From Sphingomonadaceae bacterium (GTDB lineage: Bacteria > Chloroflexota > UBA6077): DNA of 64,000 nt. The DNA lies in the NCBI GenBank assembly GCA_050261575.1, contig JBLNDL010000005.1, forward strand, positions 62,001 through 126,000, given 5' to 3'. Shown here piece by piece: positions 1 to 64,000 of this stretch (its first letter is position 1; each line of letters begins with the position of its first letter). Made by a program: the position numbers.

Positions 1-3000
1 CGCGCCCAGAACTCACGAGCGGGGCTTGCCGTTCGGTGCCGGGCTCCGGCCTCTGACCCCCGCCGCGAGGTAGATGAATCGTGAATCGTGTACCCACCCC
101 CACCTGGCTCTCGACCTCGATTCCTCCACCCAATCGCGACACCTCGTGTGCCACCAGGGAGAGGCCGATACCCTTGCTGCCAGGCTTCGTGGTGAAGCCT
201 CGCTCGAAGATCCGCTGCCGATTCTCCTCTTCGATACCGAGCCCCGTATCCTCCACCTCGATCAGCATCTCCTGCTCGTCGGCATAGAGGGAGAGCCAGA
301 CGTTTCGCCTATCTTCCGGCAGTGTCGATACGGCGTCGAAGGCGTTCTCCAGCAGGTTCCCCACGACCGTGGTCAGATCCGCCCGGCGGGAGCGATGGTC
401 GTGAACCGGCACGTCGCTGTCGGGATCCAGGTTGAGGGTGATCCCCCGCTCGTTCGCCGCGCTGATCTTGCCCAGCACCAGCCCGGCCAGAGCTGGTTCC
501 CGAATCCGGCGGGTCACAAACCCCACCATCTCTTCGTGTGTGCGGGTGGCGGTAGCGATGTACTCTATCGCATCGTCGTATCGCGCGAGCTGCAGGAGGC
601 CAGAGACGGTGTGCAGCCGGTTGATGAACTCGTGGGCCTGCGCTCGAAGCGCATTGGCGAGCTGGGTCACGCCAGTCAGCTCGGCCGCCAGCTCCCTCAT
701 CTCGCTCATATCCCTGAAGGTGGCCACGGCGCCCACCACCTTGCCGTCGACCACGATAGGCACCCGGTTGGTGAGGATCACACGCCCCTGCAGCACCTGC
801 TCCTGATCGAACTCCGGCCGCCCGGTCTCCACGATCTCCGGCAAGCGAGAGTTGGGCAACGCCTCGACGACGGGTCTGCCGATAGCCTCCTGCCCCACCC
901 CCGTCAGCCGCTCCGCCTCCGTGTTGAGCAGGGTAATCCTGCTCTTCTTGTCCACCGCGATCACCCCTTCTCGGATGCTCTGCAGGATGGCCACCCTTTC
1001 CTCCAGTATCGAGGCGATCTGGGAAGGCTCCAGGCCGAAGATGCTGGTCTTAATGTTGTACGCAACCGCGGCGGCCCCCAGCGCACCCACCCCCAGCCCG
1101 AAGAGGGCGAAGCCCGCCAACTCAAGCAGCGAATCCCTCACCTGCTGCGTCAGATGCGACATCCACACGCCAGCCACGACGACGCCCACCTGCTTCCCAT
1201 CGTCGTCGTACACCGGCACGAATGCCCTGAGGGACGGCCCCGAGATCCCCGTGGCCATGGATACATACTCCTCTCCCTCCAGGGACGGCCCCTCGTCCCC
1301 ACCCGTGAAGTGCTGGCCCACCAGATCGGGATTGGGATGCGAGTAGCGGATGGTATCCATGTTGAACACGACGATGAGGTCCAGGCCGGTTTGCTCCAGC
1401 CAGCGCTGGGTGAGCGGTTGCAGCACCTCGGCGGGGTTCTCGAGGCTGAACGCCTCTCGCACCTCCGGCCTCTCCGCCAGGAGTCTCCCCACCCCCAGCA
1501 CCCGGTCGCCGGCTAGGCTCTCCTTCTGGCGCGTGAGCGCTTGGCTAGCGAAGTAGGCAGTCACCAGCCCCGCGAACAGCAGGACCGCGAGCACCAACGC
1601 CGTCAGCTTCCACTGCAGCGGCAGAGCCGGGATCGCCCGGCGCATCGTTTCGGTTCGATATCCGTGGCCATCTACTACGGCAGACGTAGCGCTTCCTCCA
1701 GTAGGGGTGGTGGTGTGCCCGAGTTTACCGTTGGCCCGGTAACCTGTCAAACTGCGCTCACGTCCAACCCCAGACCTGTGGTCGATTCCCCTCGTTTTTC
1801 CCCACTCTCTGTGGATAACCAGCCGTTTCCTGTGGAAAACCCACTCGCGTTGTGGATAACACGCCCACTCATCCACACCCTCCAGGCCCGGCGGACACCC
1901 ACTCGCACAGCCTCACCGGCCACCCTCTCCGCCTCACACAACCTTTCCACACCCCTTCCCAGCCTTGCCCACACCGGCTCACGCACGCCGCACGCACGGT
2001 ATCCCCATTTCCACGTCCCCTACTATGACTCCTATTGAATCTACTCCCTAAGACAGAGTCTGTTGAACGATTGTGGGAGTACCCGCTATATTGGGCACAT
2101 CTCTTGCGCGCCGGTCCTGAAGCCGCGGAAAGGGTTACGCTGTTGTTCATCGACGAGGCCACAATTCACGTCGAGGGTGGAGACGGAGGCGATGGAGCCG
2201 TCAGCTTCCGCAGAGAGAAGTTCATTCCACGTGGTGGGCCCGACGGGGGTGACGGTGGTCGGGGTGGCAGTGTCTACCTCGAGGCGACGGAGGACCTGAA
2301 CACCCTGTACGCCTTTCGTCACCAGAAGCGCTTCAAGGCCGAACGAGGAGGAAACGGCGCTGGTGCCCGAAAACATGGAGCGAAGGGAAAAGACCTGATC
2401 ATACCCGTCCCCGTTGGTACGGTAGCCTACGACGAGGAAGGGACTGTCATGGCCGACCTTGCCGAGCCGCGACAGCGGGAAATGGTGGCACGCGGTGGGC
2501 GGGGCGGGCTGGGGAACGTCCACTTCTCCACTCCGGTGATGCAGACCCCCCGGATAGCGCAGAAGGGGGAGCCGGGGGAGAAGCGGTGGCTTAGGCTGGA
2601 GTTGCGATTGCTGGCCGACGTCGGGTTGGTGGGGCTGCCCAACGCCGGCAAGTCCACCCTGCTGTCCAGGATCACCGCAGCGCGGCCCAAGATTGCCGAC
2701 TACCCTTTCACCACGTTGGTGCCGAATCTGGGGGTGGTGGAGGTGGATGACACCACCTTCGTCGTGGCGGACATACCCGGGCTGATCGAGGGCGCGCACC
2801 AAGGCGCCGGACTCGGGCTGGAGTTTCTGCGCCACATCCGGCGGACGCGGCTGCTGGTTCACCTGGTGGACGGATCGTCTGCGGACCCGATAAGGGATTT
2901 CGAGGTTGTGAACCGCGAACTCGAAGAGTACGACCCCGAGCTGGCCAAGAAGCCCCAGATCGTTGCTATCAACAAGATGGACCTCCCGGATGCACGGGAG

Positions 3001-63000: not shown

Positions 63001-64000
63001 GCTTCCGGCGGGGGCCTATGCCCGGCACCTCGTCCAGGGCCGACCCGAGGGTGCGCTTGCTGCGCACGTTGCGATGGTAGGTGATGGCGAATCGGTGGGC
63101 CTCGTCCCGGATGCGTTGCACCAGGTAGAGGGCCTGCGAGGTCCGGGGGAGCATCATCCCCTGGGAGACCCCGGGCTGGAAGATCTCCTCGTTCTCCTTG
63201 GCCAGCCCCACGACGGGCAGGTTGGCCAGGCCCAGGTCGTCCAGCACCTCCAGGGCGGCGTTCAACTGCCCCTTGCCGCCGTCCACGATCACCAGGTCCG
63301 GTAGCACGGCCCAGGAGGAGGGTTCTGAGTTCTGAGTCCTGGGTCCTGAGTCCAGGGTGTCGGGGTCCTCACCCCGTGGGCCGGCCAAAGGGCCGGTCCA
63401 CGCCTCTCCTGGAGGGAAAGTGGAATCGATGCTCCCCGCGCCCCCGGCTCTCCGAGTCTCCGCGTCCTCACTCTCCCCGCCTCCGACGCTAACGGCTGAT
63501 AGCTGGCCACTGACCGCTCGCTTGAAGCGCCGCCGCAGCACCTCCTGCATCATGGCGAAGTCGTTGGCCCCCTCCACCGTCTTGATCTTGAAGCGGCGGT
63601 AGTCGGAGCTCTTCGCCTGCCCCCCCTCGAACACCACCATGCTCCCCACCGCCGAGGTGCCCTGGATGTTGGAGATGTCGTAGCACTCTATCCGGTGGGG
63701 CGTGGCCGGTAGCTGCAGCGCGTCGCGCAACTCCAGCAGGGCGCCGGTGGTCCGCTGGGTGTCGTTCAGCCAGCGAAGCTTGAGCATCTCCAACTGCTGG
63801 ACGGCGTTCTCCAACGCCAGCTTCACCAGTTGGGCTTTCTGACCTCGCTTGGGCACCGCCAGACGCACGCGGCTGCCGCGCCGCTCGGTGAGCCACTCGC
63901 CGAGCGTCTCGGCGTCGTCGATCTCCTCCTGAATCAGGATCTGAGGGGGCACGTAGGCCGCGGAGTCGTAGAACTGCTGCAGGAATGAGGCGAGCACGGG

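Follow-up and report, generated by a model that had tools for sequence, protein, structure and literature searches.

Near-erasure of CAGCTG from a Chloroflexota genome as the probable trace of a lost or strain-variable PvuII-type restriction-modification system

Introduction

The window analysed here, a stretch of DNA of 64,000 nucleotides, does not contain a single CAGCTG, while 100 shuffles of it gave 26.9 +/- 5.2 copies. CAGCTG is the recognition site of PvuII, and the methylase of that system, M.PvuII, methylates the inner C of its site. The first-pass annotation had described the hexamer as almost erased from the whole chromosome of this organism. The question raised by the locus is how a genome in which no cognate enzyme is found came to lose this word, and whether mutation or selection removed it.

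Depletion of CAGCTG in the genome

The assembly to which the window belongs (G000) comprises 3,721,602 bases in 103 contigs with a GC content of 0.654. CAGCTG occurs 78 times in it, with a maximal-order Markov ratio of 0.049, and the next-lowest palindrome, AAGCTT, has a ratio of 0.352, which bears out the near-erasure described earlier. Counts in the window, taken on both strands and set against an order-2 Markov expectation, were 0 against 63 for CAGCTG, 26 against 72 for GAGCTC, 45 against 21 for CAGTTG, 55 against 22 for GAGTTG, and 79 against 67 for GAGCTG. The sole CAGCTG of the window's contig lies at contig position 61155, just upstream of the window, in agreement with the one site previously counted on this largest contig. 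The coordinates of the window and of the methylase genes discussed below are given in Table 1; the methylase genes on contigs C20, C86, and C42 and the provirus on C42 all lie on contigs other than that of the window.

Table 1. Position of the window and of the methylase genes considered in the text
Feature	Coordinates	Strand	Remarks
Core chromosomal stretch (window)	1..64000	.	CAGCTG-free; sample of a genome-wide trait, no local element
N4-cytosine methylase C20	C20:36085-36954		Solitary
N4-cytosine methylase C86	C86:34575-35510		Orphan throughout family f1; orthologues in Ktedonobacteria
Gamma-class methylase C42	C42:69806-72202		Solitary

Depletion is independent of reading frame and is also found between genes. 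In 3171 genes from our own gene calling, with the C42 provirus excluded, CAGCTG occurs 36 times against 1895 in a synonymous-codon null, and its frequency in the three reading frames is 0.02, 0.05, and 0.04 of expectation; between genes, islands included, it is 0.13 of expectation. Observed and expected counts of Gln-Leu pairs were 25 and 1641 for CAG-CTG, 1099 and 282 for CAG-TTG, 754 and 227 for CAA-CTG, 327 and 172 for CAG-CTT, 212 and 94 for CAG-CTA, and 647 and 837 for CAG-CTC. The depletion claimed for genes is confirmed by these figures, as is the loss of sites relative to relatives: of 100 CAGCTG sites aligned from relatives G000 retains none, compared with 18–39% for six control words outside SAGCTS. 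The inner C>T change had been proposed as the commonest escape. It makes up 16 of the 31 replacements seen where a Gln-Leu pair is conserved, and CAGTTG and CAACTG stand 3.65-fold and 2.23-fold above the null in the genes of G000; the proposal holds for this genome, but other routes predominate in some depleted relatives.

The surviving sites mark recently gained DNA, as had been suggested. The first 29 kb of C42, a provirus, hold 20 of the 78 sites against 21.5 expected and are thus undepleted, and islands of ~143 kb, delimited by eye, hold 42 of the 78, with 10 per Mb elsewhere. Public contigs cover the C42 provirus patchily and were uninformative: no CAGCTG site was touched by the first 40 differences listed, beyond which there are 386 more. 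Outside the islands CAG-CTG makes up 17 of 3363 Gln-Leu pairs, about 1% of its expected share, from which we infer that selection either ended within ~0.01 synonymous substitutions per site or persists.

Distribution in the class and the phylum

The trait was followed in 66 genomes of the class and in 301 genomes of Chloroflexota. The class counts quoted in the first-pass annotation were reproduced, but across the 66 genomes they grade continuously from 11 to 863 CAGCTG per Mb and show no on/off switch. In samples of 10–137 kb from 22 class genomes, CAGCTG took first or second place among six-base palindromes ranked by depletion in 13 of the 22. Fewer than 30 CAGCTG per Mb were found in 29 of the 301 genomes, among which G000, with 21, ranks 20th. 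The trait is therefore not unique to G000 and is common in the phylum.

Mutation and selection at the site

Mutation and selection had been left unseparated; for CAGCTG they can be partly separated, and both are needed. In the frame in which the inner C>T change is non-synonymous, the Ala codon GCT is used in 4 of 989 cases, compared with about 0.09–0.11 in four control contexts, and the depletion is ~25-fold even where the change alters the protein. In several depleted relatives the main escape is CAG-CTC, a transversion that is out of reach of C>T, with Gln-Leu shares of 0.65 in G050, 0.61 in G048, 0.49 in G005, and 0.70 in G018. Together, the depletion in the non-synonymous frame and the escape to CAG-CTC argue for selection on the site.

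The two forces were fitted in an equilibrium codon model with 24 Gln-Leu and Glu-Leu states and 10 parameters, which assumes equilibrium and in which the choice of control codon set matters. The gap in lnL to the saturated model was 75–134 with both forces, 269–1118 with selection only, and 838–1279 with mutation only. With both forces, the fitted scaled selection at CAGCTG is -3.4 to -4.7 and the C>T boost 9–13-fold, whereas mutation only requires a 120–360-fold boost and is the worst or nearly the worst of the three fits. The excess of inner C>T is present on both strands of CAGCTG, a signature of the N4-methylcytosine type. Words produced by C>A, changes that are non-synonymous, gave by frame in G000 1.07/0.79/1.08 for CAGATG and 1.65/1.60/1.20 for CATCTG. 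For the SAGCTS words other than CAGCTG, the split between mutation and selection varies with the control codons chosen.

PvuII-type systems in relatives

No agent cognate to CAGCTG was found in G000. M.PvuII orthologues are lacking at E 1e-30, and tblastn with M.PvuII-like queries hit only other methylases, at best at E 1e-5 to 1e-7. Searches of all 103 contigs for the PvuII nuclease (PF09225, no candidates), for C5 methylases (PF00145), and for Vsr were likewise empty, in keeping with the earlier claim that G000 holds no matching restriction enzyme or C5 methylase. C5 methylases occur in 23 of the 66 class genomes and are unrelated to depletion.

Such agents are present in relatives. The genome G009 encodes a PvuII endonuclease (PF09225, E 4e-65; PDB PvuII, E 1e-63) with a C protein and a divergent methylase, a complete C-R-M system whose claim depends on an unpublished genome. 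The methylase of G049 matches M.PvuII (PDB 1BOO) at E 2e-127 and, as a query, found matches in 5 of the 66 class genomes and 10 of the 301 phylum genomes, of which eight are close orthologues with at least 62% identity to it. Six of the eight carriers of a close orthologue fall below 30 CAGCTG per Mb, compared with 23 of 293 other genomes (Fisher p 1.2e-5, for a cut-off picked post hoc, raw counts not normalised for GC, and genomes whose kinship breaks independence). A close orthologue is present in each of the three genomes with the fewest CAGCTG per Mb among the 301, and in all five genera that contain non-carriers beside a carrier (g88, g56, g102, g79, and g31) the minimum belongs to the carrier. 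Among the looser homologues G111 is an exception, at 82 against 34, and two carriers, G009 (94 per Mb) and G188 (203 per Mb), are not strongly depleted. A CAGCTG-cognate agent is thus in circulation within the phylum, and its presence tracks depletion. The earlier verdict that the cause is unknown is weakened accordingly.

The close orthologue is absent from 23 of the 29 depleted genomes, which implies either that the system is often lost and regained or that other systems cognate to CAGCTG exist. Three depleted genomes assembled as single contigs (9.6–14 per Mb) have only 33% homologues, and for two of them a carrier belongs to the same genus. Genuine depletion therefore occurs in genomes that lack the gene, and assembly loss is not its only source. 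The carriers nearest to G000 belong to other families of the class, and none of the five genomes of its own family, f1, has an M.PvuII orthologue.

The methylase has different partners. A separate PvuII nuclease stands in G009 and controller-nuclease fusions in G075, G267, and G188, while no partner nuclease was seen beside the gene in G049. In G050, G124, G202, and G204, four of nine genomes with a close orthologue, the partner directly upstream is a HEAT-repeat protein of 485–496 residues, and the same operon is found on a viral contig (locus L371). The HEAT protein adjoins the M.PvuII orthologue at all five loci, four of which were located via the methylase. Its hosts have 3.3, 13, 23, and 27 CAGCTG per Mb. 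At least 1329 homologues exist, with no match in plasmids; Pfam and PADLOC recognise only HEAT repeats in the protein, and an alignment of it that matches G124 at E 1.7e-261 finds nothing in G000. Its invariant residues are PD62-63, E74, K78, and a CxxC.

Structure prediction gave a model of the HEAT partner with pLDDT 90.8, whose N-terminal half (model residues 11–234) matches I-Ssp6803I with Z 8.2 and rmsd 3.5 over 130 aligned residues, a middling score that ranked 49th among 50 matches headed by HEAT repeats. We take I-Ssp6803I to be a homing endonuclease of the PD-(D/E)XK type. Atlas leads were PDDEXK_16 and DpnI, both at 0.84, below the trusted level; Foldseek with the full model returned helical repeats only, and a single-sequence model of the N-terminal part reached pLDDT 32.6. 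A literature search for M.PvuII together with a HEAT repeat found nothing. The partner (488 residues) probably represents an undescribed family of CAGCTG restriction endonucleases.

Resident methylases and the SAGCTS layer

CAGCTG is by far the most deeply depleted word, as stated in the first-pass annotation, but the signal is not confined to this single hexamer. The share of AGT among Ser codons, an independent test, lies at 0.005–0.047 in 12 contexts, whereas the four S-AGY-TS contexts reach 0.283, 0.134, 0.150, and 0.079. Among Glu-Leu pairs, observed and expected counts were 465 and 1665 for GAG-CTC, 2602 and 3266 for GAG-CTG, and 1633 and 561 for GAG-TTG; Lys-Leu pairs of G000 show no comparable shift (AAG-TTG 111 against 275 expected). 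The serine and leucine shifts therefore indicate a weak SAGCTS layer beneath the erasure of CAGCTG. All four SAGCTS words are affected in G000 and W-flanked words are not, the strength being CAGCTG >> GAGCTC > hybrids. In the longer context of GAGCTG the 5' effect is slight, and the rise of GAGTTG is smaller before T. GRGCYC as the source of GAGCTC loss was rejected, with GGG-CTC and GAG-CCC normal, and so was CMGCKG as the true motif, with CAGCGG and CCGCGG undepleted.

The SAGCTS layer and the erasure of CAGCTG separate among relatives. GAGCTC occurs 143–262 times per Mb in all five genomes of family f1, regardless of their CAGCTG count, and 416–478 times per Mb in the CAGCTG-depleted G005, G018, and G050. 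Low GAGCTC was also noted in some further genomes of the class. The SAGCTS codon pattern recurs in G064, G065, and G332-G334, weakly in G332. The layer is thus weaker and family-wide, and probably has a cause separate from a CAGCTG-only system.

Family and motif searches, which covered part of the proteome, located methylases of G000 on contigs C6, C19, C20, C25, C42 (two), C50, C57, C81, and C86. The solitary gamma-class methylase of C42 was rejected as a cause, with close orthologues only in the CAGCTG-rich G062 and G063. The family of the C20 methylase stands beside a nuclease of the MvaI/BcnI family at 54 of 82 loci and beside an EcoRII-C nuclease at 3 of 82. These nucleases cut CCWGG or CCSGG, and neither word is depleted in the C20-family loci. 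In a tree that placed 101 of 101 sequences, the C20 gene falls in a six-member clade of solitary genes (G000, G064, G065, and G332-G334) with SH-like support of 97. A general role of the family as a CAGCTG or AGCT methylase was rejected; CAGCTG is low in many flanks, and so are other palindromes. Erasure of AGCT, and likewise of GGCC, was seen at 7 of 70 C20-family loci and at 0 of 49 control loci, and the AGCT-erased loci are scattered over the tree among Anaerolineae hosts. The C86 family gave a mixed flank signal (quick tree, 73 rows) and was also set aside. Neither C20 nor C86 explains the erasure of CAGCTG. For the weak SAGCTS layer, C20 may tentatively be named as a candidate from the distribution of its gene; the C20 carriers of genus g91 lack the SAGCTS pattern, and G063, an assembly 85% complete, has the pattern without the C20 gene.

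Relation to known systems

Several published studies bear on this case. Rusinov et al. (2015; PMC4687349) have reported that lost type II R-M systems leave traces of site avoidance. The present case is similar in that a palindromic six-base site is rare, the system is absent from the genome, and relatives encode it; it differs in its depth (~2% in genes), which lies at the strong end, and in that the nearest carriers belong to other families and not to the same genus. Cherry (2021; 10.1101/2021.01.19.427316) has reported that C>T is 8.6-fold up at CAGCTG in Salmonella carriers of the N4 methylase M.SptAI, along with a 7.2-fold rise of C>A. The former value resembles the 9–13-fold boost fitted here, although it is a short-term rate measured in carriers and ours reflects base composition shaped over a long time. 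For the Bacteroides fragilis group, Tisza et al. (2023; PMC10333322) have described methylated palindromes that are depleted across the genome and for which hypermutation alone is an insufficient explanation, as it is in G000; methylomes were measured in that study, while G000 is known from sequence. Liang and Blumenthal (2013; PMC3850674) have described PvuII C-R fusions. The PvuII system itself (M.PvuII 1BOO, R.PvuII, and C.PvuII) shares the site with the present case and has methylase, nuclease, and controller orthologues in Chloroflexota relatives, but it is absent from G000, and the HEAT-repeat partner is unrelated to R.PvuII. M.Ble402III lays m4C at SAGCTS (PMC4675945, PMC5920184), the motif of the weak layer in G000, the likeness lying in the motif.

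The passages of the Chloroflexi methylome literature that were covered mention no CAGCTG or SAGCTS motif for Chloroflexi. A search for CAGCTG under-representation together with a methyltransferase returned only unrelated work, and the supplement of Rusinov et al. may list pairs of CAGCTG and Chloroflexi. Overall, avoidance of type II sites is a known mechanism; what this analysis adds is a further instance of it, together with the SAGCTS layer and the HEAT-repeat partner.

Origin of the depletion

The erasure of CAGCTG is probably the trace of a PvuII-type R-M system that was recently lost or varies among strains. G000 has neither methylase nor nuclease, like the three single-contig depleted genomes, and is therefore read in this way; a lost system, which the first-pass annotation had itself named as an alternative, is the best explanation, given that the systems of relatives track depletion. 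The lineage of G000 would long have carried a type II CAGCTG system with an N4-cytosine methylase of the M.PvuII type, and its loss would be very recent or not yet complete among strains. Each chromosomal site would have cost fitness, presumably through self-cleavage, so that selection removed sites whatever their frame. With the inner C methylated, C>T would have become about tenfold more frequent there, and many sites would have ended as CAGTTG or CAACTG. The cognate genes are missing from the present assembly; sites would have persisted in later acquisitions such as the C42 provirus, and the second, family-wide SAGCTS layer would have a separate cause. Past carriage, the source of the cost, and the timing are the conditional parts of this account, while the depletion, its independence of frame, the C>T excess, the carriers among relatives, and the absence from G000 are observed. 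Against a lost system stand the lack of any remnant in G000, the lack of carriers in family f1, and the SAGCTS layer, which a CAGCTG-only system leaves unexplained.

That layer, through the Ser AGT share and the excess of GAG-TTG, favours a different account, in which a resident solitary N4-cytosine methylase (C20 or C86) acts on SAGCTS by mutation and a cost of methylated sites, with no endonuclease. The m4C motif SAGCTS is a published one, the hosts of the six-member C20 clade share the codon pattern, and a gene present now fits the inferred recency. However, the family of C20 mostly stands beside nucleases of the MvaI/BcnI family, G065 has both C20 and C86 yet retains 348 CAGCTG per Mb, only 6 of 24 C20-family carriers fall below 30 per Mb (those of g91 reach 641), the C86 loci are mixed, and most depleted relatives have neither gene. 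We consider a solitary methylase unlikely as the cause of the erasure and more plausible, if still doubtful, for the weak SAGCTS layer. Similarly unlikely is the more specific proposal that a domesticated methylase of the C20 clade, its specificity shifted from CCWGG to SAGCTS, now maintains the erasure without a restriction enzyme.

It is improbable, too, that the cognate system is still present on an island or plasmid that escaped assembly or binning, an account that differs from a lost or strain-variable system in timing only. The division of the assembly into 103 contigs, the concentration of surviving sites in islands, and the near-zero recovery of sites, which fits ongoing selection, would agree with it; marker completeness is 100%, however, and single-contig depleted genomes also lack the gene. 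Pure methylation-driven hypermutation without selection, by C5 deamination or an extreme N4 effect, can draw on the inner C>T share at conserved Gln-Leu pairs, but it is very improbable and already largely refuted. G000 has no C5 methylase and PF00145 is unlinked to depletion in the class, the mutation-only model fits poorly even with its extreme boost, the non-synonymous frame is depleted as well, and escape to CAG-CTC is common in relatives. A variant in which an extreme rate acts through mutational load is possible.

Significance

A lost or strain-variable PvuII-type system would make G000 a clean and deep lost-system trace in an uncultured class. Both causes could be sized, with scaled selection per site in the fitted range given above and a ~tenfold C>T boost that agrees with the Salmonella rate. 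If the C20 proposal were true instead, the codon usage of Gln-Leu, Glu-Leu, and Ser would have been rewritten genome-wide via C>T and the cost of methylated sites. The analysis has also yielded two side products, a HEAT-repeat protein that is probably a new CAGCTG nuclease and a solitary methylase possibly behind the SAGCTS layer, and the surviving CAGCTG sites serve as markers of recently gained DNA.

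Neighbors of the methylases

N4-cytosine methylases of the C20 family, named after the contig of the copy found in this genome (class UBA6077, Chloroflexota), usually adjoin an MvaI/BcnI nuclease; the copy of this genome is solitary. The relative G065 carries a second copy, which is frameshifted. At four loci the place of the nuclease is taken by an unannotated protein of 367–376 residues, which had no match in a Pfam search and is possibly a further nuclease family. In one neighbor cluster of 12 loci, methylases of a second such family, C86, are adjoined by a protein with Mrr_N and HNH domains; two loci with this arrangement are listed below. 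At five loci, orthologs of M.PvuII, the N4-cytosine methylase of CAGCTG, have a HEAT-repeat partner of about 488 residues whose N-terminal domain is probably a nuclease; Pfam and PADLOC gave no nuclease assignment for this protein. Fusions of the controller protein to a PvuII-type nuclease also occur in Chloroflexota (three loci), a phylum not named for such fusions in the available portion of the 2013 fusion paper (Liang and Blumenthal, PMC3850674).

Coordinates of the methylases, their neighbors and the integrated element
Feature	Coordinates	Genome	Position
Solitary C20 methylase	C20:36085-36954 (L007)	subject	
Nuclease replacement	L099:6703-7806		beside C20-family methylase
Nuclease replacement	L107:5321-6430		same
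Nuclease replacement	L134:2686-3789		same
Nuclease replacement	L157:10883-12013		same
C86-family locus	L275:10844-11602		methylase beside Mrr_N + HNH protein
C86-family locus	L276:9304-10038		same
HEAT-repeat partner	L340:35-1501	G124	directly upstream of M.PvuII ortholog
HEAT-repeat partner	L256:1859-3349	G050	same
HEAT-repeat partner	L344:2427-3884	G204	same
HEAT-repeat partner	L345:2442-3908	G202	same
HEAT-repeat partner	L371:5007-6452	viral contig	same
Controller-nuclease fusion	L341:608-1417	G075	
Controller-nuclease fusion	L342:363-1295	G267	
Controller-nuclease fusion	L343:599-1435	G188	
Integrated element (integrase, primase-helicase)	C42:1-29000 (L348, L349)	subject	
Dam-like methylase	C42:27139-28038	subject	within integrated element

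Other word biases, methylase genes and the integrated element

Genome-wide, CTAG, CTAGG, and CTTGG occur at 0.47, 0.35, and 0.66 of expectation. This deficit is a Vsr-like pattern, yet neither Vsr nor a C5 methylase was found in the genome. Its genes strongly avoid AT-rich hexamers; TAACC is high and TAACT low. On visual inspection of the sequence around it, one surviving CAGCTG (C45:44853) appears to lie within a tRNA gene. In the relatives G332–G334 (L372-L383, L388-L391), many six-base palindromes are nearly erased at once, including ACGCGT, CGTACG, GTGCAC, TGCGCA, and CGATCG.

Judging by motifs, we take C81:1-8500 to be a BREX-like cluster with PglX, C6:19781-23314, inside an island, a type IIG-like methylase, and C25:68851-71835 a DUF1156-like methylase. 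A PHROGs scan of eight proteins of the integrated element found no capsid or clear tail gene, and the element may be a tailless virus or another kind of element.
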